This document shows, one piece after another, positions 39,465 to 55,415 of a stretch of DNA of 64,000 nt. The notes under the pieces were generated by a model that ran no database searches, was not told where the DNA came from, and saw only the letters and a list, made by a program, of their open reading frames with translations. The stretch lies in assembly GCA_004321885.1 (NCBI GenBank), contig SCQK01000007.1, positions 32,001-96,000 of the forward strand. Direction: 5' to 3'. The stretch comes from Patescibacteria group bacterium (GTDB lineage Bacteria > Patescibacteriota > Patescibacteriia > Magasanikbacterales > GWA2-37-8). Position 1 is the first letter of the stretch, and each line of letters begins with the position of its first letter. A program made the position numbers and the translations under genes.

Positions 39465-40262
39465 CTAACCCCTGGCCAAAGTGAGCCAGTAAATTTTTTG
39501 CGCGCCGGCCGCTTTCAGCACGCGCGCGCATTCCTGCATGGTGGCGCCGGTGGTGTAGACATCATCAACCAGCAGAACGTATGCGGGCGCCGGAGCCGGT
39601 CCCTTCCACGCGAACGCGCCGGCCACGTTTTGCGTCCTTTCCTCTTTGCTTAACCTGGCTTGATGAGGAGTGTAGCGGGTGCGAACTAATACCCCCTCCT
39701 CTATCCTCCCCCTAATAGGGGGAGGGTTCTGTGTGAGTCCCTCCCCTTTTAGAGCCTGCCCTGAACTTGTTTCAGGGGGAGGGATACAGGGAGGGGTATT
39801 CAAAGAGTCCAAAAAAATTTTTGCCAACACTTTCGCCTGGTTAAAGCCGCGCTCGCGTTCGCGGCGCGGGTGCAGGGGAACTGGAAGAACTGACCAGCAT
39901 ATTGGCTCCACAGCCCCGACTAAGTCGGGGACTATGGAGCCAGCCACGCTAATTATCGTTCCGACCGAGCAGAGCGAACGGAGGAACCCCTTTTTCTCAC
40001 TTATTATTTTTTCAAAAACATTTTTAATGTCTTTGGCAAAGCCGTATTTGAATTGTTTTATCAGCCTGCCCACGGGCCCGTTTTCTTCATAAACAAAAAA
40101 AGACGCACCTCGGTCCAGGTGCGCGTCCGCGGGCCAAAGCGCGCACTCATTTTGGTGTTTGGCCCGGCAAAGCTTGCACCACCACTCCCCTTCCACGCCG
40201 CAATCCACGCACGAGACCGGGAAAAGAATATCTTTGAACCAGCGCGCGGAGGCGGCCAGCAT
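39465..40262 (-). CDS. comF: ComF-family protein (double zinc ribbon plus phosphoribosyltransferase domain), with two in-frame palindromic-element insertions.
   Basis: N-terminal CVDCG..C..C and C-terminal PRTase motif VLLVDDVYTTGATM. The elements at 39700-39805 and 39904-39944 are translated. Confidence 0.75.
   Translation of the reverse strand: MLAASARWFKDILFPVSCVDCGVEGEWWCKLCRAKHQNECALWPADAHLDRGASFFVYEENGPVGRLIKQFKYGFAKDIKNVFEKIISEKKGFLRSLCSVGTIISVAGSIVPDLVGAVEPICWSVLPVPLHPRRERERGFNQAKVLAKIFLDSLNTPPCIPPPETSSGQALKGEGLTQNPPPIRGRIEEGVLVRTRYTPHQARLSKEERTQNVAGAFAWKGPAPAPAYVLLVDDVYTTGATMQECARVLKAAGAQKIYWLTLARG
39904..39944. repeat. Copy of the 43 bp CCCCGACTAAGTCGGGG element inside comF.
   Basis: Identical to 20823-20864. 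Confidence 0.8.
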
Positions 40263-40263
40263 A

Positions 40264-40866
40264 CTATTGCCAGCTCACGGCGCCGACCAGCCACTCATTG
40301 CCGATTTTAAGCAAATTTACTTTATAGGAAACCTGTTTGGAAGACGTGGCGCCCGCTTTTTCCTCTACGCGCGTGGCCTGCAAAGCCACCCCGGCGCTGG
40401 CGCCGTCCCAGTCGCTAAGCGACGAAGCGATGACCTTGGTTGTAACGCCCAAAAATTCCACGGCCGGTTTTGTATTTTTAAGAGGCGCGCTGATTTTTTG
40501 CCACAAAACATCAGTTACCAAATTTTCCAGCTCGCGAATATTGTCATAATTATTGTCGGTGGAATATGTGCCATAGCGCTCCACGAAAATTTTGGCTATC
40601 TGCCTCACCCCGTTTTTTTGCGCTTCCAGCGACGTCGGTTTTTTCACCACCAGCGGCGTGGTGGTGGCCAAGGGATTTTGCACTCCCGCCGGCGTGCCGT
40701 CCGTGTAAGCCGCGGGTAAAACATTTTCAGTTTTGTTTTCTTCGGCCGGCGGCGCTGTCTCCGATTTTTTCTTTCCGGCATACGTTAAAAAAACGCTGAC
40801 ACCGATAATTATGATAACTATCGCTCCGACGAAAATGAAAATTCTGGCGCGTAGAGGCATATACAA
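40264..40866 (-). CDS. Membrane-anchored hypothetical protein.
   Basis: N-terminal TM IFIFVGAIVIIIIGVSVFL. Confidence 0.45.
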   Translation of the reverse strand: MYMPLRARIFIFVGAIVIIIIGVSVFLTYAGKKKSETAPPAEENKTENVLPAAYTDGTPAGVQNPLATTTPLVVKKPTSLEAQKNGVRQIAKIFVERYGTYSTDNNYDNIRELENLVTDVLWQKISAPLKNTKPAVEFLGVTTKVIASSLSDWDGASAGVALQATRVEEKAGATSSKQVSYKVNLLKIGNEWLVGAVSWQ

Positions 40867-40875
40867 AATTTATTA

Positions 40876-42747
40876 TCACTGATTTTCTTTTTCAAATTCT
40901 TTTTTGGCCGCTTCAATGTCCAGCAACTGCTGGGGATTGGTGGTCACAATCTGGTCTTCGGTGTAGGAGGCCACCACTTTAATGGCCGCGTGCTTGTTGC
41001 CGGCGAAAAAAATCCCCTCACCCACAGCGCTTTCCAAAAGCAGATATTTTTCGCCCTCGGTTAAAATAAACACTTTTTGCACCAAATCAATGGCCGCCGG
41101 CGACTGACGCAACAAAAGTTGCAGGGCCGAGTTCGTCACAATCGCCTGACCGTATTGCGAGCGCAAAAAATCATTCACATCCTGCGTGATGGTGGTAACG
41201 CCCAAAAAATATTTGCGGCAGCGCTTGACCAGGGCGAAAATAAAGCGAGCGCTGTCCTCGTGCTGCATCAGCCACCAGGCCTCGTCTATGGCCAGAATCC
41301 TTTTCTTGCGCTCCGAACGCACAACGTTCCAAATATAGTTGACGATGGCGTAAATGGCCAGGGGGCGCAACTCGTCTTCCAAATCGCGCACCGAAAAAAC
41401 CACCAGCTGATTTTTCACGTCCACGTTGGTGGGCGAATTAAACAGACCGCTAAACGTGCCCTCGGTAAATTTTTTCAATTTCAAGACCAGCTCGTTTGAC
41501 CCTTCCATGCCCTCCAAAATTTCCTCCAAATCCTGCATAATGGGCGGCGTCACCTTGGTCAAATCCGCGTCCGGCGTGATATCTTTTTTGGCGTAAGTTT
41601 CTATGAGCGCGCGGTCAATGATGGAATCCTGCTCGGTGGTAAGCCCGCCCAGCATGATGCGCAACAGCCCCTTCACGGTAATGACCGCCCCGCGGATAAT
41701 ATCATCCACGGAAATTTCCTGACCCACGGGCCGCGGCAAATCAAAGGGGTTCACCTTGCTTTCCGAAGATAAAGAAATATTTATATAGGTGCCGCCCACG
41801 GCATCGCACAAATGCTTGTATTCCATTTCCGGGTCAATCACGATAATGTCCGTGCCCATCATCATGGTGCGCAAAATTTCCAGCTTGATGGCATAACTCT
41901 TGCCGGCGCCGGAAGTGGCGAACACCACCATATTGGCGTTTTGCAAAGAAAAGCGGTCAAACAAAATCAGGCTATTGTTGTGTCGGTTGATGCCGTACAA
42001 GATACCGTCATCCGAGGTGAGCTCGGCGGAAATAAACGGAAAACTGGCCGCGATGGGGCTGGAGTTCATGTTGAAAGCGACCGCGATTTCATCGTTGCAT
42101 AAGGGCAGGGTGGAATTAAAACCCTGCTCGGACTGATAAAAAACCTTGCGCGAATAAATGAGCTTGCCGCCAAAAACATTTTCAATGTCTTCGCAGGTCT
42201 GGTCCAGCTCTTCTTTGGTTTTGGCGTAAACCGTAACATAAAACGCAAACTGAAAAAAATGCTCGGTGCCCTGGGTGAGATTGTCGCGCAGTTCTTCTAT
42301 GTCGCGCAGGGCGGTTTCGCGAATCGGGTCGCGCGGCGCGCCTTTTTCCGCGTCGGCGTTTATCTGCGCTTCCAGGGCGCCGACTTTATTGCGCAACTGC
42401 TTCAAAATTATAGCTGACTTGACCGGATAAAAAAACATGCCGATGTCCATGGTCACGGACATATTAAGAATGGGCGAACTCCAGCCCACCGAAATATAGC
42501 GCGGATAGGTGATGACAAAAATGGTGCGGCAAAAAATATCGCCCAGCTTCACGAAGCCGGTCTCCACGTTGAAAGCCGAGGGCGCGATGATGTCCTTAAT
42601 GGAAACCGTGCCCTCGCGATAAGCCCGCTCTTCGGCCAAAATCATGGTCTCGGCCGCGGCTTTCTTTTTTACCGCCTCTTCTTCTTTGCGCAGGCGGCTC
42701 TCGTCGGGCTGGCCGGTTGGTTTTACGATTTTTGGTGCAAAAGCCAT
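40876..42747 (-). CDS. virB4: VirB4/TrbE-family type IV secretion ATPase.
   Basis: Walker A VVFATSGAGKSY, with DUF87-like architecture. Confidence 0.75.
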   Translation of the reverse strand: MAFAPKIVKPTGQPDESRLRKEEEAVKKKAAAETMILAEERAYREGTVSIKDIIAPSAFNVETGFVKLGDIFCRTIFVITYPRYISVGWSSPILNMSVTMDIGMFFYPVKSAIILKQLRNKVGALEAQINADAEKGAPRDPIRETALRDIEELRDNLTQGTEHFFQFAFYVTVYAKTKEELDQTCEDIENVFGGKLIYSRKVFYQSEQGFNSTLPLCNDEIAVAFNMNSSPIAASFPFISAELTSDDGILYGINRHNNSLILFDRFSLQNANMVVFATSGAGKSYAIKLEILRTMMMGTDIIVIDPEMEYKHLCDAVGGTYINISLSSESKVNPFDLPRPVGQEISVDDIIRGAVITVKGLLRIMLGGLTTEQDSIIDRALIETYAKKDITPDADLTKVTPPIMQDLEEILEGMEGSNELVLKLKKFTEGTFSGLFNSPTNVDVKNQLVVFSVRDLEDELRPLAIYAIVNYIWNVVRSERKKRILAIDEAWWLMQHEDSARFIFALVKRCRKYFLGVTTITQDVNDFLRSQYGQAIVTNSALQLLLRQSPAAIDLVQKVFILTEGEKYLLLESAVGEGIFFAGNKHAAIKVVASYTEDQIVTTNPQQLLDIEAAKKEFEKENQ

Positions 42748-42752
42748 AGGTA

Positions 42753-43433
42753 TTATTCTACCTGCATCTGATTCGCCGGCGCCAGGTATTGGCTAAACGC
42801 CACGTCCGGATTATACGTTGAATAAAATAATTCTATCAGGGATTGCGTGTCCAGGCGCGCCACTTCCAGGTTCATTGAAGCCAAACCCCCTTCCACCTGG
42901 CGCACGCGCGCGTCTAAATCTTTTTTTCTCTGCAAAAACCGGTCTTCTTTGAGAGTGATGATAGTAGCCGGATTAATCGTCTCCATCGCGCGCGGCCAAA
43001 AGCCGCGTTTTTTGTTAGAAAGCGGGTCGTAGGGCACAATCACGAAAAACTGTTTGCTCATGATTTTGCCGAGCGACACCAGCTCGGTGATAAACGAGCG
43101 GTAATCGGCCGTCTGCGCGCGTAAAAGCTCGTTGCTTTGCTCGCGCTCTTTGGTTAGTAATTTTTCCAGATAGGGCTTGATATATAACTGACGCGATTGC
43201 ACCACCACCTGCAGGGGAAAATCCAGGGAGTTCAAAAAAGAAACATACGACGACACCAGCGCGTTTTGCTCTTCCTCGCTTTTGAGCGCGAAATTAACGC
43301 TGGAAACCATCAGCAGGGCGCGCAGGGTGCCGTCTTTCATGACAACAGTGTCTGATTTGATTTCAGAAAAAGGCAGATGATTCTGCGCGGACGGAATAGC
43401 TCTTTTTTTGGCCAGCGTTTTTTTATTTTGCAT
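42753..43433 (-). CDS. Hypothetical protein immediately upstream of VirB4 (possibly a split VirB4 N-terminal domain or a T4SS accessory protein).
   Basis: A 226 aa ORF tightly coupled to virB4. Confidence 0.4.
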   Translation of the reverse strand: MQNKKTLAKKRAIPSAQNHLPFSEIKSDTVVMKDGTLRALLMVSSVNFALKSEEEQNALVSSYVSFLNSLDFPLQVVVQSRQLYIKPYLEKLLTKEREQSNELLRAQTADYRSFITELVSLGKIMSKQFFVIVPYDPLSNKKRGFWPRAMETINPATIITLKEDRFLQRKKDLDARVRQVEGGLASMNLEVARLDTQSLIELFYSTYNPDVAFSQYLAPANQMQVE

Positions 43434-43441
43434 ATGTTTTT

Positions 43442-43476
43442 CCCTCCCCTTGCGAAGGGGAGGGTTAGGGAGGGGT
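43442..43476. repeat. GGGGAGGG-family palindromic element (intergenic).
   Basis: ccctccccttgcgaaggggagggttagggagggg. Confidence 0.6.
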
Positions 43477-43477
43477 C

Positions 43478-43906
43478 TTACTCGGGTTTGTAATATCCCC
43501 CGGTATTCACAATCAAAGACAAATCCCTGATTCTGTTATACGACAATCGCGGCATGGCCTTGGCCGCTTCTTCTATTTTTTTCTCCGCGTTCGCTTCGCG
43601 CAATTTTTTCAAATCGGCGTTGGAATATTTTTTCTGCCAGATGCGCAGGCTGGGCCGGCGCGCGGTGCCGGCGATATTTAGGATAAAATAATGAAACGGC
43701 TGGCCGTTGATTTTGACAAAAGCGAAGGTCAGCGACAAGCCGCCGAAAAGCGCGGTGAGGAAAATAAACAAAGCCATGTCGGCCAATTTGAAAGACAAAA
43801 ATATCAACAGACTGCCTGCGAGCAAAATGATAAACTGCCTGGTGGTGATGGGCCCAAAAATTTTGTCTTCCACGTCTATGAATTGCGGCACCGTGAATTG
43901 ATCCAT
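43478..43906 (-). CDS. PrgI/VirB3-like small membrane protein of conjugative type IV secretion systems.
   Basis: MDQFTVPQFIDVEDKIFGPITTRQFIILLAG followed by two TM helices resembles PrgI-family proteins. Confidence 0.55.
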   Translation of the reverse strand: MDQFTVPQFIDVEDKIFGPITTRQFIILLAGSLLIFLSFKLADMALFIFLTALFGGLSLTFAFVKINGQPFHYFILNIAGTARRPSLRIWQKKYSNADLKKLREANAEKKIEEAAKAMPRLSYNRIRDLSLIVNTGGYYKPE

Positions 43907-43907
43907 A

Positions 43908-45038
43908 CTATAATTCTTTCTCCATCGCCACTATCGCTTTTATTTCTTCTATCTTTATCCCGCCTTTTTCCGTCGCTGTCTGCGCCAGGGTTTTTCTGTC
44001 GGCCAACGCGCCGCACACCGCGTCCATGTATTCCAAATAAAGAGGGCTCTGTTTCCAGGCGGCCTGCGCGTCCATATATAATAGGTAGGATTCGTCGCGC
44101 AGGTTGATGAATTTTTGTTTCAGGCGCTGGCCCGCCTCGGCGCAGTTTTGCGCCAAACGGCGAAAATCCGTCAGACTAATATATTTTACCTCATCTATGG
44201 GTCCCATTTCAACAGGCGGAGCGGAAATATCCCGCATGCTCTGTTTTACCGGCGCGCTTCCTAACTTGAACGACGAGGATTGTGTAGCCCCCTCCCCTCT
44301 TAGGGAAACCGTCATCTTCCCCTCCCCTTGATAAGGGGAGGGCTCGCCACCACACCAAAATTTTTGGTGTGGTGGCGAGGGAGGGGCAGTCGCAACCGGC
44401 TTCTCTTCAGGCGCCAAAAGCGCGTGCAAAAGCTCGTTGGCTTTTTTCTTGCTCTCGGGCACAGTTGGTCCCCCCCCTCCTTTAGAAGGAGGGGGCAAGG
44501 GGGTGGTCTTGACCTTTTCTGAATGTTCAAACGGGTTAAACGGAGTTGCTGTCGCCGGCAACAATACCTCTTCGCACGCTCCCGCCGCTTTCTCGGCCTG
44601 ATTGGCCGTAAAACCCATGCCACCGTCTTTTATGGAACGCAATAAAATATTTTTCGTTTCTTCGGGCGAGCGCACGTCTTTGAGGCGCAACTGAATAATA
44701 CTGCGCAAGCGATTGATAAAGTTGGGCGGCACTGGAAAATTTATTTTTTTGAGCGCCTGGTCCACCTGGCTTAGGCGCGGCTCGCTCAATTTCGGCGCGT
44801 CGCCCTTGGCCGGCGCCGGCTCTTCCAAAGGCGACCGAAAATCATTATTCGCTTTCTTCGTTCCCATCATCGGCGCCGTGGGATACGGCGGTCGTTTTGG
44901 CGCTACTTTCACTCCCTCCCCTTTTAGGGGAGGGGCAGGGAGTGGGGTATTGTGCGCCGCTTGTCTTACCTGCGACAAAGGCATGCGCACAAAACTGCCG
45001 TCGGCCTTTTTTACCAAAATTGTTGGTTCGTTTGGCAT
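43908..45038 (-). CDS. Proline-rich hypothetical protein carrying at least four in-frame palindromic-element insertions.
   Basis: Translated elements: PLPAPPLKGEGVKV, PLPPPSKGGGGPT and SPPHQKFWCGGEPSPYQGEG. The ORF extends to 45101 through a further element. Confidence 0.45.
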   Translation of the reverse strand: MPNEPTILVKKADGSFVRMPLSQVRQAAHNTPLPAPPLKGEGVKVAPKRPPYPTAPMMGTKKANNDFRSPLEEPAPAKGDAPKLSEPRLSQVDQALKKINFPVPPNFINRLRSIIQLRLKDVRSPEETKNILLRSIKDGGMGFTANQAEKAAGACEEVLLPATATPFNPFEHSEKVKTTPLPPPSKGGGGPTVPESKKKANELLHALLAPEEKPVATAPPSPPHQKFWCGGEPSPYQGEGKMTVSLRGEGATQSSSFKLGSAPVKQSMRDISAPPVEMGPIDEVKYISLTDFRRLAQNCAEAGQRLKQKFINLRDESYLLYMDAQAAWKQSPLYLEYMDAVCGALADRKTLAQTATEKGGIKIEEIKAIVAMEKEL

Positions 45039-45093
45039 ATTATTTACCCCTGCCTCCCTCCCCCTTAAATAAAGGGGGGGACAGGAGGGGGTA

Positions 45094-46425
45094 TTATTCA
45101 CTAACTAATTTTAAGTCTTTCGCCACCTGCGCGGCCAAGGATTCCACGCTGTCAAATTTTTTGGGCAGGCGCAAATAACGTTCGGTGCGCGCTTCTATTT
45201 TTTTTCCATACAAATCGCCCGCAAAATTCAAAACATGAACTTCCAGGCAGTCTTTTTTTGTTAAAGAATTATATCCATAATATAGCAAGCCGGAATACCC
45301 CTTCCCCTGCCCCTCCCCTAAAAGGGGAGGGTGGCTATCGGTGGTTCCTCCCCTTTTTAGGGGGAGGACAAAGGAGGGGGTATTCGCAATGAAAGCGACG
45401 GAGCACGTATACAATCCCCTGGGCAAATTTTTGGCCAGCGCCACGTCCAAGTTGGCCGTGTGAATCCCTACTTTATCCCCTTGTCCATAGCCGGGCAAAA
45501 CCGCGCCGGCCACCACGCGCGAACGGTGTAAAAACACAATTCTGGTTACGGCCGCCGCCAGCGCCGCCGCTCCCAAAATTTGCGTGGCCGATAACGCGTT
45601 GCCATTTAAATAATAATCCAAAATAATGGCGGACACGGGCCAGGACAGCTCGCACAAAGTCGCCACCGAAGCGGTGATTTTTTTCAGGCCGAAATAGTAC
45701 AAAAACATGGCCGCGGCTCCGGATGTAAAAACTATAATGATTAAAGTCGTCCACTGGGCCGCGCCCACCGACGGCAGAGAGGAAAAATAGCGCGCCGCCG
45801 GAATCGCCATAATCAAAACCGTGAGCCCAAAGCGCAAAGCCGCCAGCAGGCCATAGCTGATATTTTTTAGGGAATATTTTCCAAAGGTGGTGGCCGAACC
45901 CCAGGCAAACGCGGCCAGCATGGAAAAACCGGCGGCAATGGGAACAGCCGACATCGCGCTAGAAACCGCGAACGGATTTTTGAAAGTAACAAAATATCCC
46001 GCGACCAGCGCGAGCGGGGCGTAAAAATAAAACGAGCGCGGAAATCGCTCGCGTAAAAATATGGCGGCCAAGATAATCGCGAAAATCGGCTGAAATTTTT
46101 GCAAAAGAATCACTACGGAAATATCTTTGAAGCCCGTGGCAAACAAGGCCTTGGTGATAAAAATCGTGCCCAAAGCCCCGCCAAACAAGGCCACCCAAAA
46201 AATTGCGACCCACTCTTTGCGTTTTATCAGTTTTAACTGGGCGCGGTAAACAACCAAAAACGGCAACAAGGCGACAAAACCGAGCAGGTGCTCCAAAAAC
46301 ACCAGCAAGGCCGGTTGCAAGGAATACAAACGGGGTCGCAAAAAAGTGCCGTCCAAACTCCACAGCAGAGCGGCCAGCGCCACGGCCATTGCCCCGATAA
46401 TCACGCTATTTTTTTTCATAATCAT
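45094..46425 (-). CDS. Putative fusion of an EamA/DMT-family 10-TM transporter with a C-terminal riboflavin kinase domain. The kinase domain carries an in-frame palindromic insertion.
   Basis: About 300 aa of paired EamA-like TM repeats, then GQGDKVGIHTANL...GLYTCSV..EVHVLNFAGDLYGKKIEARTERYLR (RFK motifs). The element at 45298-45385 encodes ..TTDSHPPLLGEGQGKGYSGL... Confidence 0.55.
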   Translation of the reverse strand: MIMKKNSVIIGAMAVALAALLWSLDGTFLRPRLYSLQPALLVFLEHLLGFVALLPFLVVYRAQLKLIKRKEWVAIFWVALFGGALGTIFITKALFATGFKDISVVILLQKFQPIFAIILAAIFLRERFPRSFYFYAPLALVAGYFVTFKNPFAVSSAMSAVPIAAGFSMLAAFAWGSATTFGKYSLKNISYGLLAALRFGLTVLIMAIPAARYFSSLPSVGAAQWTTLIIIVFTSGAAAMFLYYFGLKKITASVATLCELSWPVSAIILDYYLNGNALSATQILGAAALAAAVTRIVFLHRSRVVAGAVLPGYGQGDKVGIHTANLDVALAKNLPRGLYTCSVAFIANTPSFVLPLKRGGTTDSHPPLLGEGQGKGYSGLLYYGYNSLTKKDCLEVHVLNFAGDLYGKKIEARTERYLRLPKKFDSVESLAAQVAKDLKLVSE

Positions 46426-46481
46426 TTGTCATGCTGAACCACCAGCTGGCGGTTGTTTCAGCATCTTCGCTTTCTTCGTCA

Positions 46482-46593
46482 CCCCACTGTCATTCCGAGC
46501 GGAGCGAGGAATCCCTTATACTACGTTAACAGTTTCTATATCCCCCTTCTTCAAATGCAACACAATCGCCAGCGCCTCGCACAGCCACGAGGC
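46482..46593. repeat. 112 bp direct repeat (copy 1). It includes a MITE-like hairpin and a duplicated 3' gene tail.
   Basis: About 90 percent identical to 47237-47348. On the minus strand it encodes ..EALAIVLHLKKGDIETVNVV with a stop, as a remnant. Confidence 0.75.
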
Positions 46594-46723
46594 GCGTTGT
46601 CTCACACATTAATAATGATTGTGAATAAAAACTGTGGACAAAACGCCTTGACAAAAAACTCTTTTCTTGATATATTAGATTCGGATAGTAACGATGAAAA
46701 GACCCTCGTAAGAAGATACGTGC

Positions 46724-47218
46724 TTACGGGGTGCTTTTTTTATACTCAACTTTATTCCTCAAATCACTAACAAAACTAATTTTGCCGCCGGCCACTTTCC
46801 GCAATAAGTACGAGCAACTGGACGGCGCGGGCGCGATCAAGTGGCAAAACTTATTTTGTTTTCGCAAATAGTCAACTAAACAATGAAAATCACCATCGCC
46901 GCTGACAATTACGGCCTGATCATAATTCTGATATTCTATCATCGTGTGTAAAACCAATTCGGCGTCACAATTCCCTTTTACTTCACCGTCTTTCAATATT
47001 AGAGTTGGTTTAAATATCAAAATGTAACCAACCTCCTGAAGAAATTTATACAACTCCTCATTGCCAAATAAAAAACCAATGAACATAAACGCCTTCGCGA
47101 CGCTATATTTGTCTTTCAAATACCTGCGAAAACGAAAATAATCCAGCTTCCAACCAATGCGCTGCATACTGAAATATAGATTCTGACTGTCTATAAACGC
47201 GAAATTGTTTTCTTTCAT
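46724..47218 (-). CDS. NYN-domain (PIN-like, LabA-type) protein.
   Basis: AFIDSQNLY, DAELVLHTM and VIVSGDGDFHCLV motifs. Confidence 0.65.
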   Translation of the reverse strand: MKENNFAFIDSQNLYFSMQRIGWKLDYFRFRRYLKDKYSVAKAFMFIGFLFGNEELYKFLQEVGYILIFKPTLILKDGEVKGNCDAELVLHTMIEYQNYDQAVIVSGDGDFHCLVDYLRKQNKFCHLIAPAPSSCSYLLRKVAGGKISFVSDLRNKVEYKKSTP

Positions 47219-47236
47219 ACTTCGTTTCCCTCCCCG

Positions 47237-47348
47237 CCCCACTGTCATTCTGAGCGGAGCGAGGAATCCCTTACACTACGTTAACAGTTTCTATATCCCC
47301 TTTTTTCAAATGCAACACTATCGCCAGCGCCTCGCGCAGCCAAGAGGC
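47237..47348. repeat. 112 bp direct repeat (copy 2), overlapping the authentic 3' end of the gene 47271-48254.
   Basis: See copy 1. Confidence 0.75.
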
Positions 47349-48254
47349 ATAAGCCTCGCGCTCCTCTTGTCCGCGATAAATATTCTGCAAGAATTTTTCC
47401 GCCTCCAAAATTGCCGTGTCCTGATTGTAGCCACGGCCGGAAAAATCTTTGAGCAAAACCGATAATTTTCTGCTTTCATCTCCGGCATCGCTCGTCGGCA
47501 CGCTCTCGTTGCTTTGCTCCAACGATTGTATGATGTTCCGGCTCATGGCGTCAAAATCCGCGTCGCTCTTGCCGCCCAAAAATTCCCCCAGATAAAATCG
47601 CGCCGGCACGCCGGTCACGATGGCGCTATAAAAATAATTCTGCAATAAAAATTGTCTTTCATTCGCGCCAAACTGGCCAAACATCTTCCACACCGCCTGC
47701 AAGAGCATGGAAAAAATAAAAGCGTCATCCCAAAAATATTGTTTTTTAATATCTTCTGATTTCGAAACAGCGGGTAGTGTGCGCACAAACATTTCGCCGA
47801 TTTCTTTATCCGCGCCATTTCGCAAAAAATCCCCGAGCGTCGCCACAAAAACCAAATCATTATAAAATCCGCCTTCGCCTTTCAAAATAATTTTCAATTC
47901 TTCTTTTTCGTATGGCTTGACGCCAGCGCCCAAACCCAGAGCCGCTGAAATAAACGATAGCTGTAGCGCCAATGCGCCGGCGATTTCGCTATCGTCTGGC
48001 TTATCCATAAATTCGGCGACCAATTCGGAATCCAAAAACAAAATTATTTCTTTTTCAATCACGTCCATTGCTCCGGATAACTCTTCCTTAGTCGCTCGCG
48101 CGCCAATTTGCGAAGCGTAATCAAACATTTTCTCGTTTGCGCCCTTGGCAATCAAATCCGCTTTGGCTTTTTCCAATTCCAAAAACGCCTCGCGAACATC
48201 CTGCCACGAACACCTTCTAAACTCGCATACTTTGCGCCTGCCGAGGGTGAACAT
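47271..48254 (-). CDS. Hypothetical protein.
   Basis: A 327 aa ORF with no recognisable domain. Confidence 0.45.
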   Translation of the reverse strand: MFTLGRRKVCEFRRCSWQDVREAFLELEKAKADLIAKGANEKMFDYASQIGARATKEELSGAMDVIEKEIILFLDSELVAEFMDKPDDSEIAGALALQLSFISAALGLGAGVKPYEKEELKIILKGEGGFYNDLVFVATLGDFLRNGADKEIGEMFVRTLPAVSKSEDIKKQYFWDDAFIFSMLLQAVWKMFGQFGANERQFLLQNYFYSAIVTGVPARFYLGEFLGGKSDADFDAMSRNIIQSLEQSNESVPTSDAGDESRKLSVLLKDFSGRGYNQDTAILEAEKFLQNIYRGQEEREAYASWLREALAIVLHLKKGDIETVNVV

Positions 48255-48263
48255 AAAGCAATT

Positions 48264-48578
48264 TTATTCCTCTCCTTCGTCAGATTTATCAAAAAAATTT
48301 TCAACCAACTCTGACAAATCAAGACGCCTTCTTTCTTCTGCACTCTTTTTATTAAATTCTAAAACAGAATGCAAATCTTGTTGTTGCCTTGATGTCAAAT
48401 TTCGACTCTCCAGTTCTTTAACGACCAGTTCCGTCGGCGCCTTCAAATTATCATATATGTATCTTTCATTACTATTCGGGGCTACACGCGCGCATAACAT
48501 TCTAAAAACATCCTTAGTTGTATTTTTTTTGAGCTCTGATTTAAAATACCCTTCATTTTCTTTTGTATCGATAGTCAT
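48264..48578 (-). CDS. Small acidic hypothetical protein.
   Basis: A 104 aa ORF. Confidence 0.35.
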   Translation of the reverse strand: MTIDTKENEGYFKSELKKNTTKDVFRMLCARVAPNSNERYIYDNLKAPTELVVKELESRNLTSRQQQDLHSVLEFNKKSAEERRRLDLSELVENFFDKSDEGEE

Positions 48579-48600
48579 AATTATTTTTCATCTATAACTT

Positions 48601-49794
48601 TCAAGCAAGTGGTTGCGCGAAATTACTAAAAATAAAATCTTTCTTCTTTTCGTCAAAATATAATAATGGCTCTCCGGATTTATAATAATCCATATAAATA
48701 TCATTCACTTGCAGCAAATTTGAAAATAAAGGTTCGCTGTGGTAATCCGTTCCGTCCAATTTAATAACGGATTTAATGTAGGCCGCCGCCTGTTCGGCTG
48801 ACACCTTCGCGAACCATTTCTTTAAATTCCGCGTGTCTTCATCCGTAAGGGGAACATGCAAAATGGCATACGTTATGTCCGCAGTCAGATTTGATTTTGT
48901 TATATCAATGTTATTTATGTCAATCCCAATAATGCTTCCGTTCATTATATGCAAATATAACTTCAAGATAATTCCGATTATCAGGCCGTCCGCTTCGCTG
49001 GTCAAATTAAAATATTTATCATTACTCAAAAAATCTAAAAGTTGCATTTCGTTCAAATCCGACTGTGCAAAATTAACAAAGATGGTAATCCAAAAATGAA
49101 TCGTATATAAATCCATTTCATTCTGCGGACCGATTATTGTCTGATTGTCCAACAGAAAACCAGCTAATTCCAAACTGCGTTTGGTTCGAACATCAAACAA
49201 ACTGGAGTCGCTCTTAAGCATGTCCGCCAAAATCGCTTCAATATCAAACCCGATTTCAATCGCCAAGACGATCAAACTGCTATGTAAAAAATAATCTTGT
49301 TCCGTAGAATTAAGCCGGCCAAAAAAATAACAGCATAAAACGACATAAATCCGCCGCAAGAACGCGGCCAGTTCCGCATCTATTCCTTCAAAAAATAACC
49401 CGGCTGCGGAATTTTTTGCCAGCTGGCGTAATAAAATCAAAACCTCATTCTGCTTGCCGAAATTTATCGCTACATAAACCGTGCGAATTAATTTATCGCG
49501 CTGAAGCGAATCCTTCGTGTCGGTCGGTTTGAATTTTTTTATTTCTTCCAATGTCAATTCACCGACCGCGGGATTTCGGCCGCGCATTGTTTTTACCAGA
49601 TTTTCACAATCGCCAAAATTTTCCTTTTTCGTCGTGGAGGTCAGCGGATAAAACTGATACGCCAAAGCTTCTTCCCAGGGAAGTAAATCAAAACCTTTGA
49701 TTAGTTGCTCAAATTCGCTCTTGTCTTTCGCTGAAATATTAAGCAAACTAACAAAGGAAGACAGCGTAAAATTTTCTCTGACAATTTTAGCCAT
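48601..49794 (-). CDS. Hypothetical protein.
   Basis: A 397 aa ORF. Confidence 0.45.
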   Translation of the reverse strand: MAKIVRENFTLSSFVSLLNISAKDKSEFEQLIKGFDLLPWEEALAYQFYPLTSTTKKENFGDCENLVKTMRGRNPAVGELTLEEIKKFKPTDTKDSLQRDKLIRTVYVAINFGKQNEVLILLRQLAKNSAAGLFFEGIDAELAAFLRRIYVVLCCYFFGRLNSTEQDYFLHSSLIVLAIEIGFDIEAILADMLKSDSSLFDVRTKRSLELAGFLLDNQTIIGPQNEMDLYTIHFWITIFVNFAQSDLNEMQLLDFLSNDKYFNLTSEADGLIIGIILKLYLHIMNGSIIGIDINNIDITKSNLTADITYAILHVPLTDEDTRNLKKWFAKVSAEQAAAYIKSVIKLDGTDYHSEPLFSNLLQVNDIYMDYYKSGEPLLYFDEKKKDFIFSNFAQPLA

Positions 49795-49801
49795 AAATTA
49801 A

Positions 49802-51649
49802 TTATTTTCTCTTTCGCGATTTCGGCTTTTTAGGAGGCGTTTGAACTTTAATATTATCTAACAATTGCCTCTTGGCTTCCGCGGAAAATAATTTTAACAT
49901 CTTAATAATTGCACCAATGCCCTCCGGCGGGCTCAATTGCGATACGCGCAGTATTAAACTGTCGTCGGCCTTGCCCAATAATTTTTCCAGGTATTCTTCC
50001 AAAACATAACGCTGGTTGTCTATGGTAATTTCCCCGGCCACTCCTTTTTCAAAATAAATCTCGGCCGCTTGCGCCGCATCATCGCCGAATAGCTTATTGA
50101 ATAGCCCGGTAAAATTTGTTAGCAGCTCATGGGATAAACTTTTAATTTCTTCTTCGCCTGCCTGTTCCTCGCCTTCTTCTCCCTCCTCCAACGCCTCTCT
50201 GGCCTGCTCCTCATCAGTGGCGCCCTTATGTTCCACCATGGCCGCCGCGTCCTTAATATCTCCCATTTTTACCCTCGCGTTTAAATAGGCGACGAGCTCT
50301 TTAATGTTATAAAAATATTGTTCTTCCACCGGAAAGCCTTCTCTTTCTTTTTTCAAATTCCTGCATCTTATCTTTAAGCATATTTTTTTATTCCCCCAGT
50401 CAAATCTCTCGTTGATCGCTTCGCCAGCAGTGAAAAAATCAGTGCCAGCGGCCTTGGCCAAGCACATCAGCCAATCGCGCGGATTATTGTATAAAAAAGG
50501 CGCGATAATATCCGTAAATATTTTATCATCGGCTTCATCCTGCTCAAGACCATAGCCCCTTATATCTCTTAAGGCTTCGTCATACGTGCTGTGCAGGCCT
50601 TGATAAATCTGACCGCGACGATTATTTCCAATGTCAATGATACGATAATCTTCTTTCGGGCCGTTTGTCCCGTCTTCCTTCGGCCTTTCCAATTTTTGCG
50701 TATAAACGACAAAATTTTCCTTTGGCCCCAGGGCCACGGCCGCGTTCTGAGTGCGGGCGAGGGTTCTCTCATGCTGTCTTTCGTTGGAAATATTTTTCCT
50801 GTGCATTTGCAATAATGGCAATTCAAATTCCACCGTGGTGCCGGTATATTCGTTAAATTTCCCTATCTCGTGCACGTGGCCTTCGGCCAAAAATGGAATG
50901 CCTTTTTTTCTAAGATCGGTCCGAGCATCATTTTTGGACATGGTCTCGCAAACCGGCAGCCATAAAAATTCAGCCGCTCCGTTCACCTTGGTTTCTCCGC
51001 TGGCAAGAAATAACGTATGCGAAGCATTTTCAATGTGGTGCTTATCCAAAGCGCTATCGCGCAAGCCGCCAATGTACTGAAAGCCAATCTGATTTGCCCT
51101 GATTTTATCCAGATACCCCTGTGTATCAAAATCAACCAAAGTGTCAAGCGGACATTTTTCGCGCAGGTCAATCGGCCCTTTTTTTGATTGCACGACGAGC
51201 TCTTCACCGTTAAAATATTTTTCTATTAGCGTCTGGTCGTTAATCTTGTTCAGTCCAAGCATTCTATTCATTTCTCTTATGCACGCAAGCTGGGCCAATT
51301 GGCGCAGGTCTGCTTTTAGCTTTTTGCCCGCGACCTCAATCTTTACCGTCATTTCAGCTTTGTCGGCAATGCCTTGATATATATCCGCGGGGTTGTAGCC
51401 GCCGCGCCAGATTTCGTTCGCTTCTAAAAAGTCGCGCATGCGATGGTGCTCCACCAAAAAATCCGAATCATAGCCGGTCATTGATAATAATTCAACATCA
51501 GCCACTTTCGCCGTATCCGAGGTGGCGTTTTTCCAGCCTATTTTTTCGCCCAACTTATGATAAATATGGTCCATGATGGAACCGGTTTTCCCTTCCGATG
51601 CCGGGCGCTGTTTTTTTTCAACTTCTGGGTTATGTATTTCGCTAGCCAT
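49802..51649 (-). CDS. Hypothetical protein with an acidic Glu-rich C-terminal segment. A possible metallophosphoesterase-like GHVHE motif is low confidence.
   Basis: A 615 aa ORF, translationally coupled to the VirB6-like gene. Confidence 0.45.
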   Translation of the reverse strand: MASEIHNPEVEKKQRPASEGKTGSIMDHIYHKLGEKIGWKNATSDTAKVADVELLSMTGYDSDFLVEHHRMRDFLEANEIWRGGYNPADIYQGIADKAEMTVKIEVAGKKLKADLRQLAQLACIREMNRMLGLNKINDQTLIEKYFNGEELVVQSKKGPIDLREKCPLDTLVDFDTQGYLDKIRANQIGFQYIGGLRDSALDKHHIENASHTLFLASGETKVNGAAEFLWLPVCETMSKNDARTDLRKKGIPFLAEGHVHEIGKFNEYTGTTVEFELPLLQMHRKNISNERQHERTLARTQNAAVALGPKENFVVYTQKLERPKEDGTNGPKEDYRIIDIGNNRRGQIYQGLHSTYDEALRDIRGYGLEQDEADDKIFTDIIAPFLYNNPRDWLMCLAKAAGTDFFTAGEAINERFDWGNKKICLKIRCRNLKKEREGFPVEEQYFYNIKELVAYLNARVKMGDIKDAAAMVEHKGATDEEQAREALEEGEEGEEQAGEEEIKSLSHELLTNFTGLFNKLFGDDAAQAAEIYFEKGVAGEITIDNQRYVLEEYLEKLLGKADDSLILRVSQLSPPEGIGAIIKMLKLFSAEAKRQLLDNIKVQTPPKKPKSRKRK

Positions 51650-51650
51650 A

Positions 51651-54600
51651 TTATGTTAATTTTTTCAATTGTTCGCTGTCCAATCCTCTAATTAGCTTGA
51701 ATAGCTCCTGAATGTTCTTGATTCCCTGATCCCTTAGCCCCTGATCGTTTTGGGCGTTATTACGGTGCTGAAGTTCAATTTTACTGGACTCCGTCACATT
51801 AAATTCTTTAATATGCCTGACCGCCTCGGCCCCAAGATTATATTTTTGCAAGAAACCTTTAATGGCGGCGGCTTGTTCGTTATTAAGCAACGTAGCGCTG
51901 GCCCGCATTGTTTTGCGCACGCTTTCAATTACTTGTTGCGCTTCTCCACCAAAAGTAGTAGCGACTTCCTGCGCCAGCATATTCATTGTGGCGTCATCAA
52001 TCCAACTTTGTTCAAATAAGCCTTTCAAAATTGTCTGGGCCACCATTTTATCTTCCCAGGTCTGCTTGCCTTTCCCTTTAAGTGTAACATGGTTCATATG
52101 CCCGCGATGCGCCTGGAGCAACTGGTCGTAATTCATGTCCTTGAAATTCTTGAAAAATCCTTCCACCACGGCTTCTTCGGCGGCGGTGTTTGGCACATCA
52201 ATGCCCATATTGCCCCAAATATTCGCTTGCCCGGCCTTAGAAATCATGTCCTGGCGCGTGCCGCGATACAAAGTGTATTGATGATCGCGCAAGGCCAGCT
52301 GATGAGCCGCGTAAAGAGCGGGGTTGGCCGCGCCAGCTTTTCCCCAAACCGCGCTTAATTGTCCGCGCGACTGGGTGAGCGATCCCGACAAAGACTTGCC
52401 GATTTCTTCGACATTAGCCGCCGATCCGGCTTGCCGGAGCTGGCCCAATATTTGCTGTAATACATTGATTTCGGTTTTGGCTAAAAAATTTTCATCCATT
52501 TGCTGTTTGCCAAAAAGGACCTTAAAATTATTTTCAAGAGCGGTACCTTTCGTTGAACTAAGAAATGCTTGCGCGGCTGTTGCGTCAATTTTGCCGCCGA
52601 CTTTAATTTTTTCCATTGCCTTTGTCAGAGTTTCCAAACTCGCGGCCAATTCCTGTATTTTTTGTTGATTGGCGCCGCCGCTAAAAATACCGGCCGCGCT
52701 TTCCATCCCCTTCAATTTATTTTCATCAGCTTCTATTTCAGATTCTAAATTTCCAATCTCGTCAGCCAGCCTAACCCCTCTTTCAGTTTCATCGTCCGTC
52801 GGATTCGCTTTATTATTCAATACACCATACTCTCTTTTCATTTCTTCTAATGCACTCTTTTTAGAATCCAGACCAGTTCTCATTCCTTCAGCTTTTTCCC
52901 CGGCCGCCAACGCGGAAGCCACGCCCTGCAAAGATTGAATTCGCGTTTCGATGGGAGCCGATTCCGCTTCCAGCTTTCCCTTCCCTTTTTCATTTAACGC
53001 GCTTTGCGCGGCCAAAAGATTCTTCTCCTCTTCCGAACTTAATCCTTCTTGTTCAGACTTACTGCGCGCCAAGGCGCTAACATATTGTTCGCCCTGACTG
53101 GTATTTATCAGCCCGCCCCTAACGCTCGCTTCAATAAATTTAATCAGCTCCTCGGCAATTTGCCCGCCCAGTTCGCCCATTTTTTTAGCTTCCACTGTGT
53201 GCCGAAATCTTTGGAAAAACGCCGCCCTATTTCTCTTCGCTCCCATTTCTTCCAACCCGATTTCCGCCTCGGCCCGCGCTTTATGCGCCTGAATTTGTTC
53301 GCTGACTGTTCCCAAACCATATTTGTCTTTTTCACCAATTTGGAATTCGCCGTTCTTAAATCGCGCATTGCCTTTCACCGCGCGGCGGCCGTATGCCTTG
53401 TATTCGGTGGTTTTTTCTTCCGAACGCGCTTGTTCTGCCTCAAGCATGCCCTTTTCTATGCGATCCAACGCGTTAATGGACGGCCCTTCAAAGGCCTGAA
53501 ATAAATATTTTGGATCGGCGCTGATTCTTTTGTCCATCAATTCTTCGCGCACCTTGGCGAACTCCTGCACTCTCTTCAATTGTTTCCGGCTGCGCAAAAG
53601 CTTTTCGTGCCTCCCATGGAAGAAACGCTGAAACGGACCGCGACCCTCGTCAACGACCTGCTCTGTGTACCATTCATCCCCCTCTCGCACAAGCTTCGCG
53701 CCTTTTTTAATATCGGCCGCGGCCGCTTTTTTCGCCTCCTCTTCTGTCGCCACGGCTACTCCGCTTTTGTCGGTAATAAGATTTTTTTTCTTCTTAAAAT
53801 CATACTTCATCTGCGTTATCGCCTTACCATTCTCATCATATAATTTTCCGCTCTCATCGGCTGTTACACGAGCATTTTGTTCATCTTCGGTCAAAGCGTC
53901 TTTAGAATCTACTATTTTATTATTCTCGTCACGCTTAACTTTATGCCATGCTTTGCTTTTTTCGTCATATTCCATCTTATAACCCATCAATTCTTCATTT
54001 CTGGACAACCTGGATTTAATGTTCAATTCTTCCTCCTTCGTTTCCAACCGCGGCCCGCCGGCACGCCAGGCTCGCCAGCCCTCCACAATTGACCTTTGCA
54101 AATCGCCTTTGATTCTTTCAACTCTATTAGCCAATAAACCCTGATACAATCCTTTTCCTGTTAATTTTGCCAAACCAATCCCCGCTTTCTTAGCCCCCTC
54201 AACCCCCTTTTTCGCCGCCCAGCGCGCCGCGGTGTACCCGCTCGCCACCGCCGCCACCTTCTTGCCGAAGTCCGTCACTTTGCCCATCATGGCCCCGCCG
54301 GTTACGCCCAGCGCCTGGGTCACTTTCGCCCCAATCAAAAGCATGCCAATGGCAATGGCGAAGTTGGCCATGGCCGGCCATGTCATTGCCGCCGTAATTC
54401 CGGCGCTCTGGCCGCCAACTTTAATGTTTGACGCGCCCGCTGATTCAATGCCCTCATCGGTAATTTGAACCGGAACCGAATTATTGCTGGGGTCAGCTAT
54501 CTCTTTGCTTACTGTCCCGGACCCCACCACGGCAAAAGACAACCAAAGAAAAAACGCCAAAATCGGCCCGACAATCACGTGATTGCCAAACTCGGTCCAC

Positions 54601-55415
54601 CACTGGCTGGCGTATTTTTGCGTTTGCGGTATGACATTCAAAACAAAAGCCAAAGGGGATAAAATGATAAGCACCCAAAGCACAATCATACGCGCCAAAA
54701 GAATCACCAGATAAACACCCATGGTCACCATAGCCATCCCCGCAAAAGCGACTGCGGCAACCGAAGCCATAAATATGCCGGACATCTTGTAATTCTCCGG
54801 TTGCGTGCCGCCGGCAAATCTTTGTATATCATTAAAATTGAAGGCGTTTATAAGATTGCCGCCGGCCGTGGCCGCCACGCCATTGATAAAAGTTATCATC
54901 ACCACCTGGGCCAGGTCTATAATCAACCCGGCAATGGTGCGGCTGAAATTTACAAGTATCGCGGCAAACAATAATTTCACCAGTAATTTTTTGTATTCAT
55001 ATTGCTCTATGCCCAAAATTGTGCCAAAGGCGATAACGAGCAGGATAATTACAAAAAACATGTTGGTAACATCGCGCACCAACACCCACCCAGTAGTTAC
55101 CGCCGTTGAATCTATAAATCCATTGTATCCCCCAATTTGAATGGTAAAACGCAGAATGAAAATTGTAATCTTCATGAACAACGCCGCCATCCACATGGTA
55201 AAAGTAGTGCCGGCGCTCATTATGGCATCAAAAAATCCATCAGCCTGCGCCACTTCGGCGCCCATCACCCACATCAACAAAACAGTCGTGGCCACCATCA
55301 CAAACGAAACCATGCCCAACTTCCTGCTGGGTTTCAAAAATCGCAAAACAGCGCTCGCGGCCGCGCGCGCTTTTACGCAAACTTTACTCGCCTTTTTCCA
55401 AAGGGAGACAAGCAT
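51651..55415 (-). CDS. Giant VirB6/TrbL-like polytopic membrane protein with a long C-terminal coiled-coil domain (1254 aa).
   Basis: The N-terminal region of about 450 aa has more than 8 TM helices, followed by about 800 aa that are heptad-rich. Confidence 0.55.
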   Translation of the reverse strand: MLVSLWKKASKVCVKARAAASAVLRFLKPSRKLGMVSFVMVATTVLLMWVMGAEVAQADGFFDAIMSAGTTFTMWMAALFMKITIFILRFTIQIGGYNGFIDSTAVTTGWVLVRDVTNMFFVIILLVIAFGTILGIEQYEYKKLLVKLLFAAILVNFSRTIAGLIIDLAQVVMITFINGVAATAGGNLINAFNFNDIQRFAGGTQPENYKMSGIFMASVAAVAFAGMAMVTMGVYLVILLARMIVLWVLIILSPLAFVLNVIPQTQKYASQWWTEFGNHVIVGPILAFFLWLSFAVVGSGTVSKEIADPSNNSVPVQITDEGIESAGASNIKVGGQSAGITAAMTWPAMANFAIAIGMLLIGAKVTQALGVTGGAMMGKVTDFGKKVAAVASGYTAARWAAKKGVEGAKKAGIGLAKLTGKGLYQGLLANRVERIKGDLQRSIVEGWRAWRAGGPRLETKEEELNIKSRLSRNEELMGYKMEYDEKSKAWHKVKRDENNKIVDSKDALTEDEQNARVTADESGKLYDENGKAITQMKYDFKKKKNLITDKSGVAVATEEEAKKAAAADIKKGAKLVREGDEWYTEQVVDEGRGPFQRFFHGRHEKLLRSRKQLKRVQEFAKVREELMDKRISADPKYLFQAFEGPSINALDRIEKGMLEAEQARSEEKTTEYKAYGRRAVKGNARFKNGEFQIGEKDKYGLGTVSEQIQAHKARAEAEIGLEEMGAKRNRAAFFQRFRHTVEAKKMGELGGQIAEELIKFIEASVRGGLINTSQGEQYVSALARSKSEQEGLSSEEEKNLLAAQSALNEKGKGKLEAESAPIETRIQSLQGVASALAAGEKAEGMRTGLDSKKSALEEMKREYGVLNNKANPTDDETERGVRLADEIGNLESEIEADENKLKGMESAAGIFSGGANQQKIQELAASLETLTKAMEKIKVGGKIDATAAQAFLSSTKGTALENNFKVLFGKQQMDENFLAKTEINVLQQILGQLRQAGSAANVEEIGKSLSGSLTQSRGQLSAVWGKAGAANPALYAAHQLALRDHQYTLYRGTRQDMISKAGQANIWGNMGIDVPNTAAEEAVVEGFFKNFKDMNYDQLLQAHRGHMNHVTLKGKGKQTWEDKMVAQTILKGLFEQSWIDDATMNMLAQEVATTFGGEAQQVIESVRKTMRASATLLNNEQAAAIKGFLQKYNLGAEAVRHIKEFNVTESSKIELQHRNNAQNDQGLRDQGIKNIQELFKLIRGLDSEQLKKLT

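Follow-up and report, generated by a model that had tools for sequence, protein, structure and literature searches.

The locus and its genes

The stretch of DNA analysed here (the window) comprises 64,000 nucleotides (nt) of a Patescibacteria group bacterium, positions 32,001 to 96,000 of the forward strand of contig SCQK01000007.1 (assembly GCA_004321885.1). On its minus strand, at 39465-55415, lies a single compact block of 13 genes that encodes the four core parts of the membrane complex of a type IV secretion system (T4SS): an extended VirB6-like protein, a PrgI/VirB3 protein, a VirB4 split between a TrsD-like protein and an ATPase, and a VirB8-like protein. Three lineage-specific soluble families are encoded as well, and comF is the last gene of the operon. 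In gene order, with lengths in amino acids (aa) and with open reading frames abbreviated as ORFs, the block reads as follows.

54036..55415, minus strand: N-terminal polytopic VirB6-like domain, residues ~1-460 of a 1254-aa protein
51651..54035, minus strand: hydrophilic C-terminal tail of the same protein, ~800 aa (residues 461-1254)
49802..51649, minus strand: 615-aa soluble protein, a putative split-off module of the VirB6 tail, homologous to tail ends elsewhere
48601..49794, minus strand: 397-aa member of the family here called c0, first-position paralogue, clustering with ORFs between the VirB6-like gene and the gene before prgI
48264..48578, minus strand: 104-aa orphan ORF between the c0 paralogues, a putative gene (GC content 34.6%)
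47271..48254, minus strand: 327-aa c0 member, second-position paralogue, falling in cluster 0
46724..47248, minus strand: NYN-domain gene (Pfam NYN, E 3.3e-14)
45094..46425, minus strand: EamA transporter fused to riboflavin kinase (EamA-RibK; Pfam EamA 1.1e-27, Flavokinase 2.1e-19)
43908..45101, minus strand: soluble proline-rich (Pro-rich) protein, 397 aa as ORF, of a T4SS-associated family encoded directly upstream of prgI
43478..43906, minus strand: PrgI/VirB3-like two-helix membrane protein (Pfam PF12666, 32.6 bits against a cutoff of 27; two transmembrane segments)
42753..43433, minus strand: TrsD-like protein, 226 aa, the putative separate N-terminal part of VirB4 (NCBIfam TrsD 1.2e-7, below the 200-bit cutoff)
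40876..42747, minus strand: VirB4 ATPase, C-terminal two thirds, 623 aa (Walker A GAGKSY and Walker B ILAIDEAW in the translation)
40264..40866, minus strand: VirB8-like bitopic membrane protein, 200 aa, modelled (AlphaFold2, then Foldseek) as an N-terminal transmembrane helix, a linker and an NTF2-like domain
39465..40262, minus strand: ComF-family protein, last gene of the block (TIGR00201 comF, E 1.2e-21, below cutoff; Pribosyltran domain)

Read head to tail from 55415 to 39465, neighbouring ORFs are never more than 22 nt apart except at two places, between prgI and trsD (44 nt) and between the NYN and EamA genes (298 nt, an insertion site), and this close spacing is consistent with co-transcription of the block. 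A candidate for the operon start, found just upstream of the VirB6-like gene by a consensus scan alone, which says nothing on function, is the following.

55441..55469, minus strand: sigma-70-like promoter match, TTGTTA-17-TATAAT with TG

An earlier interpretation made from the letters of the window (the sequence-only reading) had delimited a co-oriented minus-strand block at 40264-55415. The ORFs lie where it placed them and every gene that it listed is present, but the block continues beyond the end it gave, into comF, after a gap of 1 nt; the VirB8-like gene, ComF and the division of VirB4 had gone unrecognised. The genes around the block are ordinary chromosomal ones (SMC, ClpP, Fpg, S-adenosylhomocysteine hydrolase, TrmD and riboflavin synthase).

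We compared the window by tblastn and clustering with 82 loci, consisting of two contigs that carry close homologues (L001 and L002) and 80 loci of species-representative genomes found by means of VirB4. About 80 related genomes, most of them Magasanikbacteria (class ABY1), share one gene order: VirB6-like, one or two c0 genes, Pro-rich, PrgI, TrsD, VirB4, VirB8-like, ComF. Homologues of the genes studied come nearly all from Patescibacteria, Magasanikbacteria predominating. Since VirB4 is 71-83% identical across the 80 related genomes, and since the order is conserved across the 82 loci of different species, vertical inheritance under strong constraint is indicated. We consider it very likely that the locus is a T4SS operon of the patescibacterial type, carried on the chromosome and inherited vertically, which descends from monoderm conjugation machinery and is arranged in the way that is typical of ABY1 and the Magasanikbacteria.

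The membrane-complex core

The predicted VirB4 ATPase scores 362 bits against the NCBIfam model conju_CD1110 (NF045971; cutoff 325), aligning to model positions 178-730 of 752, and it matches PDB entry 4ag5 (E 2.7e-50) and the Pfam family P-loop_TraG (3.4e-28); by these matches we assign it to the monoderm CD1110, or MPF-FATA-like, type. Its matches to CedB (E 2.9e-14) and CedD lie far under cutoff, and that to CedB is generic. The TrsD-like product aligns to two VirB4 models, CD1110 (positions 2-95) and Mbov_0397 (positions 91-233), and its gene adjoins virB4 in all 82 loci. Because it covers the start of the CD1110 model and the 623-aa protein covers most of the rest, as far as position 730, the predicted VirB4 is split in two genes, one for a TrsD-like N-terminal fragment and one for the ATPase. 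This pairing of TrsD with VirB4 is reported to be the commonest T4SS feature of Patescibacteria (PMC12102498). The prgI gene is present in 78 of the 82 loci. Both the VirB4-like ATPase with its GAGKSY motif and the PrgI- or VirB3-like protein with two transmembrane segments had been named in the sequence-only reading, and both are borne out by scores above the cutoffs of their family models.

The gene between virB4 and comF, whose true start is probably at 40860 to judge from the starts of its homologues, would encode the VirB8 equivalent. Scattered weak Pfam matches of the homologues are to VirB8, TcpC and SnoaL, families of the NTF2 type. The AlphaFold2 model, built with 62 homologues, has a predicted local distance difference test score (pLDDT) of 82, the folded domain scoring 76-98 per block of 10 residues and mostly above 90. 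Its top Foldseek matches are TcpC of pCW3 (3ub1, 4o3v), a Rickettsia VirB8-like protein, PrgL of pCF10 (7aed), CagV (6iqt), DotI and Agrobacterium VirB8 (2cc3). On the strength of this confident model we describe the product as VirB8-like; the gene is found in 68 of the 82 loci.

The 1254-aa protein (51651-55415) has about 7-8 hydrophobic helices in residues 33-361, followed by the hydrophilic tail. We accept it as VirB6-like at the level of the modelled fold, and not as a member of a Pfam family, because it reaches no Pfam or NCBIfam threshold. The best match of its structure model is the TrwI/VirB6 protein of R388; the top five Foldseek matches are all TrwI, and TrwI and DotA, two independent T4SS channel proteins, stand within the top three of 48,164 chains in the fold search. 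When homologues were scanned singly, TrbL was the sole Pfam family to recur, with weak E-values, in 3 of 16 and then in 3 of 41 of them (6 of 57), and one homologue (P0078) has PF04610 (TrbL) among its precomputed annotations and bears the name of a T4SS protein at NCBI. Synteny of the VirB6-like gene with virB3, virB4 and virB8 is seen in 58 of the 82 loci, a count limited by flank length. All of these observations speak against the view that the protein is an unrelated polytopic neighbour of VirB3, VirB4 and VirB8 whose helical-bundle matches are non-specific, a view that we think very unlikely to be correct. Several points nevertheless favour it and weigh against our own assignment: neither the protein nor its family profile has a match in Pfam, NCBIfam or the PDB sequences; an hhalign comparison with the 779-aa membrane protein of a Pontibacillus plasmid, described below, recovers a 34-column motif at 7% probability only; and the structure model is only moderately confident (pLDDT 60.8), with low TM-scores to TrwI (0.25-0.43).

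The family of the 1254-aa protein has more than 590 detected patescibacterial members of about 880-2100 aa, which are 50-60% identical over the first ~460 residues and variable over the remainder. The tail is rich in Glu, Lys, Ala and Gln and contains 0.9% Pro; the segment that follows the last hydrophobic helix is rich in Lys and Arg. Conserved, non-repetitive segments of the tail span residues 589-717 and 750-1253, and no Pfam domain was found in the tails of 41 family members. A VirB6- or TrbL-like protein made of a multi-transmembrane part of about 450 aa and a coiled coil of about 800 aa had been proposed from the letters alone. The polytopic N-terminus, the long tail and, by the modelled fold, the likeness to VirB6 hold, with no family-level sequence match to go with them; a coiled coil of 800 aa is unsupported, because two short stretches alone, at residues ~881-947 and 1158-1186, score higher than the 99th percentile of shuffled sequences in a crude test for heptads.

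The 615-aa protein encoded next can be tied to this tail because the domain is fused to it in some genomes and separate in others. In at least 12 of 120 VirB6-like homologues (L001 among them) the C-terminal end aligns with residues ~30-430 of the protein, which is the product of a separate gene in five related loci. No Pfam or NCBIfam match exceeds threshold, the single match below it being to rinA (E 0.037), and we see no signal peptide or transmembrane segment. Since the module, fused to the tail elsewhere, lacks both, the VirB6 tail is probably cytoplasmic.

With equivalents of VirB3, VirB4, VirB6 and VirB8 all present, the core of the monoderm T4SSs is therefore encoded. The earlier proposal of a T4SS is supported, since PrgI/VirB3, the TrsD-like fragment, the VirB8-like model and the recurrent TrbL matches stand beside VirB4, and the matches to T4SS proteins go beyond a generic ATPase. 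Among the families that the sequence-only reading had named for a search, VirB3 and VirB4 are found by profile, VirB8 by fold, VirB6 by fold with no profile match, and VirD4 in none of the scanned ORFs.

Conserved companions and inserted genes

Several of the genes between the VirB6-like gene and prgI had been left as hypothetical. They are no random assortment: by homology and position, four of them are assigned to families that recur at related T4SS loci. The c0 genes lie between the VirB6-like gene and the gene before prgI and occur in 40 of 57 informative loci. They are fast-evolving and barely alignable (mean column identity 15%), vary in copy number from 0 to 2, and have a GC content about 4 points below that of virB4 in 41 of 47 loci. 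The 327-aa member is 30-31% identical to the product of a 333-aa gene in the same position in L001 and L002 (E 7e-47 and 1e-44). Forty-seven c0 members scanned singly gave no recurrent Pfam match, and a profile search of the PDB gave none either. The 104-aa ORF between the two paralogues has no homologue in the 82 related loci.

The Pro-rich gene, whose likely start at 45038, judged from homologue starts, would give a product of 376 aa, stands immediately upstream of prgI in 77 of the 82 loci. The conserved parts of its family are the N-terminus, a middle RLKD...GGLG motif and the C-terminal 110 aa; 70 members scanned singly against Pfam and a profile search of the PDB yielded no recurrent match.

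The comF gene is syntenic in 69 of the 82 loci, and in about half of the loci it overlaps the VirB8-like gene or starts within 6 nt of it, stop and start codons often overlapping. The ComF of this genome carries genome-specific in-frame insertions. Within 10 kb downstream, recG is found in 8 of 53 related loci and radA in 5 of 53; neither is among the scanned ORFs of the window.

The sequence-only reading had remarked that unrelated genes, an EamA-RibK fusion and a NYN gene flanked by repeats, are embedded in the locus, and the comparison agrees. EamA-RibK has no counterpart in the 82 related loci save one unrelated EamA match of 25%, and the NYN gene is absent from 81 of them. The exception, locus L045, has a NYN fragment and a 412-aa AAA ATPase at the same intergenic site (5314-7169 of that locus) and also a 118-aa ORF between its Pro-rich gene and prgI (8383-8739). 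Because L045 carries a NYN fragment there as well, the site between the c0 and Pro-rich genes evidently tolerates insertions, and the operon seems to have recurrent insertion sites. By their distribution, the two genes are best described as later, genome-specific insertions and not as parts of the predicted machine. The NYN gene is flanked by a direct repeat of 129 nt, the copies of which are 90% identical.

46465..46593, no strand assigned: direct repeat copy 1, a palindrome and a second version of the final 25 codons of the 327-aa gene
47220..47348, no strand assigned: direct repeat copy 2, the 3′ end of the 327-aa gene, a palindrome and the start of the NYN gene

In the same reading frame, copy 1 still gives ASWLCEALAIVLHLKKGDIETVNVV followed by a stop, matching the final 25 codons of the 327-aa gene and its termination codon. 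The EamA-RibK architecture occurs elsewhere in about 15-20 representative clusters, in proteins of 409-455 aa that match in two stretches, and a riboflavin uptake-and-trapping module is a plausible role for it. The kinase domain here has an extra, palindrome-encoded insertion of ~23 aa. A riboflavin synthase gene lies at 51-677 of the window.

Relationship to known systems

The system has already been described in Patescibacteria, the ultrasmall Candidate Phyla Radiation (CPR) bacteria of the sequence-only reading, which was right that it is reported from them (PMC12102498, PMC12857230); the locus is a good example of it, with two unrelated genes inserted. What our analysis adds is descriptive: the VirB8-like model, the detachable tail module, the three conserved uncharacterised families and the insertion hot spot. 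The closest arrangement is that of class ABY1 in the survey of patescibacterial T4SSs by Quinonero-Coronel et al. 2025 (PMC12102498). In that survey the patescibacterial VirB4 forms a clade beside the monoderm MPF-FATA class, TrsD, VirB3 (by the PrgI profile) and VirB6 are encoded near virB4, relaxases are absent, VirB8 homologues are almost confined to ABY1, and the ABY1 loci commonly include comF, recG and radA. Our locus has the MPF-FATA-related VirB4, the separate TrsD-like gene, PrgI/VirB3, VirB6 and VirB8; it is chromosomal, includes comF, the ABY1 signature for which we looked, and has no relaxase nearby. It differs in the insertion of EamA-RibK and NYN in this genome and in the pilin: many patescibacteria have pilin genes near virB4, whereas no VirB2-like pilin gene was found in the window, where a crude hydrophobicity screen of the small intergenic ORFs over the 64 kb, with no pilin hidden Markov model run, gave PrgI as the only ORF with two transmembrane segments. 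A search of the text of PMC12102498 found no mention of a large tail on VirB6, of a separately encoded 615-aa module or of families corresponding to c0 and the Pro-rich protein.

The monoderm conjugation systems of the MPF-FATA and MPF-FA classes (Prg of pCF10, Tra of pIP501, Trs of pGO1, CTn2 of C. difficile and Tcp of pCW3) share with the block the inner-membrane core of VirB3, VirB4, VirB6 and VirB8. They likewise have no outer-membrane parts; the VirB4 split of the TrsD type recalls the pGO1 subclass, and the VirB8-like domain is nearest in fold to TcpC and PrgL. The block departs from them in having no relaxase, VirD4, VirB1-type hydrolase or adhesin, in a VirB4 that is at most 35% identical to the nearest plasmid-borne ones, from Firmicutes and Actinobacteria, and in a VirB6-like N-terminal domain for which tblastn against 72,556 plasmids detected no homologue.

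The closest plasmid VirB4 in PLSDB, at 35% identity, belongs to a locus (L084) at 351801-361354 of the Pontibacillus sp. ALD_SL1 plasmid NZ_CP062975.1. The genes there encode, in order, the 779-aa membrane protein, a PrgI-like protein, a TrsD-like protein, VirB4 and then a peptidoglycan hydrolase, an order shared with the window as far as VirB4, and the gene before VirB4 has a product to which our TrsD-like protein is 29% identical. The plasmid is a non-mobilizable megaplasmid of 898 kb, and the locus, which adjoins flagellar genes, also includes an Mbov_0395-type pilin-like gene, a split VirB4 and a peptidoglycan endopeptidase of 1050 aa.

VirB6 proteins of the MPF-FATA type usually have about 300 aa. 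The architecture of the 1254-aa protein, with 8 hydrophobic segments in residues 33-361 and its tail at 461-1254, fits instead the known category of extended VirB6, defined by at least five hydrophobic helices followed by a large hydrophilic C-proximal region and exemplified by the Rickettsiales paralogues and by MPF-FA VirB6 proteins of 700-900 aa (PMC12857230). The proteins of our family differ from these in their length, in belonging to a system with an MPF-FATA-type VirB4 and in that part of the tail can be a separate gene.

A probable resident system and not a mobile one

The kinship of the block with conjugation machinery raises the question of whether it serves an integrated conjugative element as transfer module and would export DNA, or is the decaying and non-functional remnant of one; we regard conjugative export and decay as each highly improbable. 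Three features would suit an integrated element: both the CD1110 VirB4 family and the nearest relatives outside the CPR belong to the conjugation ATPases of Firmicutes and Actinobacteria; genes for a large serine recombinase (36164-37672) and for tRNA-Ser (34154-34246) are no more than 6 kb away; and the locus bears insertions (EamA-RibK, NYN and the palindromic repeats). Yet the core ORFs are all intact and highly conserved, VirB4 showing 71-83% identity over some 80 species; Pfam scans of the operon ORFs and of most window ORFs of at least 150 aa gave no match to a relaxase or VirD4, nor to VirB1; and L001 and L002, the two loci with inspected flanks, lack the recombinase segment. Relatives have the same flanking genes in synteny, namely those for ComF, a 563-aa membrane protein, HSP20, VanW and ClpP, so that we do not regard the block as a recent mobile insertion.

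An element extending from the recombinase and tRNA-Ser through the block was considered and rejected, since the intervening comF and 563-aa genes are syntenic and neither L001 nor L002 has the recombinase segment. The neighbouring segment consists of the tRNA-Ser(GCU) gene at 34154, small ORFs, an Amidase_6 gene (34785-35678) and the recombinase gene (best NCBIfam matches XisF and Ccr), and it may be a small integrated element of its own (34154-37672) beside the T4SS block. Amidase_6 and VanW might be thought of as substitutes for VirB1; both are encoded outside the operon, the Amidase_6 gene is absent from L001 and L002, and VanW is found downstream in 14 of 53 related loci.

What the machine may move

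By analogy with solved T4SS structures, a VirB4 hexamer would be tethered at the inner face of the membrane by VirB3 and TrsD, the VirB6-like subunits would form the central channel, and the NTF2 domains of the VirB8-like protein would make a collar outside the membrane. The probably cytoplasmic VirB6 tail of ~800 aa, together with the 615-aa, c0 and Pro-rich proteins, could then be a docking platform in place of the coupling protein. As to what is transported, our preferred guess, and we advance it tentatively, is that nucleic acid is imported on contact and passed to ComF. The synteny of comF and the occurrence of recG and radA within 10 kb downstream in some relatives provide the link to nucleic acid that we count in its favor. 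A bolder and more specific version strikes us as unlikely, although worth stating: that in the T4SS of ABY1 and the Magasanikbacteria VirD4 has been replaced by a cytoplasmic platform (a VirB6 tail of 800-2000 aa, the 615-aa module, c0 and the Pro-rich protein), that the machine is coupled translationally to ComF, and that it runs in reverse, pulling host nucleic acid into a bacterium that does not make its own nucleotides.

The ComB system of Helicobacter and the archaeal Ced system are precedents for import by machines of the VirB4 family. They resemble the present locus in that no relaxase or coupling protein is used and in a link to competence proteins, which here is a circumstantial one through ComF. 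ComB, which operates across an outer membrane, delivers to ComEC, and Ced relies on CedA, CedA1 and CedA2; no such parts are seen at this locus, and the CedB match of its VirB4 is, as noted, a generic one.

The alternative that has to be taken most seriously is a T4SS that exports effectors. Under this explanation proteins would be injected or released into a host bacterium, c0 or a giant secreted protein would be among the substrates or adhesins, and ComF would be a mere neighbour. Fast evolution combined with low GC content is typical of host-interaction genes, and the c0 genes, with their variable copy number, have both properties. A gene for the Cys-rich giant protein, recognised by a shared C-terminal domain, stands just upstream of the VirB6-like gene in 18 of the 40 loci whose flank is visible. 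Moreover, T4SSs that export protein without a coupling protein are known, namely Ptl and the VirB system of Brucella (PMC12857230), and effector delivery has been a matter of speculation in the literature on Saccharibacteria (PMC11665869). Set against this, Pfam scans of the c0, 615-aa and Pro-rich proteins found no toxin, enzyme or immunity domain, and the tight coupling to comF would go unexplained; we also count against export that we know of no secretion signal for these systems. On balance we are inclined to doubt effector export, if not strongly.

The import of nucleic acid that we prefer has difficulties of its own, and the following weigh against it and against our account of the machine as a whole. 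According to Wang et al. 2023, as cited in PMC12857230, and to PMC11665869, a T4SS is essential for the epibiotic growth of Southlakia epibionticum; comEC is dispensable in that organism, the only patescibacterium tested genetically (PMC12857230), and because of this the essential role there is not classical transformation. The adjacency of comF could be inherited synteny with no functional link, recG and radA being nearby in only a minority of loci. We have seen 64 kb of the genome, and its other parts could hold VirD4, a relaxase, pilins or ComEC; the machine is known here from its genes alone.

No T4SS before the patescibacterial one had been shown to be essential for its own carrier, and the role of this system has been described as completely unknown (PMC12857230, PMC11665869). 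The comparison with about 80 relatives yields a clean parts list for the ABY1 version, with four core parts and three conserved families that have no known fold or function. Those uncharacterised families, and the coupling to ComF, are concrete handles on what these machines move and in which direction.

Other features of the window

The giant Cys-rich protein may be an adhesin linked to the T4SS. It has a length of 2630 aa and a signal peptide in L001 and L002, and the corresponding gene here occupies the stretch from 60699 to beyond 64000, past the window end. Two extra partial copies of its C-terminal domain come after it, at 58457-59842 and 55429-55791, as direct DNA repeats that are 78-94% identical. 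Inverted repeats of ~400 nt (57328-57741 and 60180-60602) consist of four adjoining pairs of arms, 79-96% complementary. The same region holds an ORF with an IS1595-type zinc ribbon (58090-58455) and, on the plus strand, a HEPN and nucleotidyltransferase pair (55886-56592).

Families of short, GC-rich palindromic repeats are scattered over the window, many of them inside ORFs that stay open. Those that we call type A lie at 15024, 18768, 27023, 39699, 43437, 44315, 44468, 44907, 45044, 45294 and 45341; in a count of this type, 9 were found in the 64 kb here against 14 in 1.3 Mb of related loci. Further sets are at 20824 and 39903 (42 nt, identical), at 23798 and 44342, and at 38390 and 39738 (60 nt), and the palindromes at 38863, 46488 and 47243 are of the TGTCATTCC...GGAATGACA type. 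The segments of ComF that are missing from 66 homologues (residues ~101-125 and 156-192) are exactly the positions of three palindromic repeats, and the flavokinase domain, the Pro-rich gene and the 563-aa gene carry such repeats as well. These elements are like the in-frame palindromic elements of Rickettsia; we found no report in the literature of palindromic elements inside CPR genes.

Toward the other end of the window, the 16S rRNA gene spans 2861 nt against a model of 1533 nt, with insertions of ~1.3 kb (region 8528-12098), and a 253-aa ORF lies within it at 10336-11097. A group I intron match at 8528-9297, adjacent to the gene, contains an ORF of 223 aa. Direct repeats at 3160-3332, 5786-5958 and 8051-8166 are 73-78% identical; the first two are at the 3′ ends of genes with a phosphoenolpyruvate-utilising mobile domain (3154-4248 and 5783-7258), and all three are probably the ends of paralogous genes.

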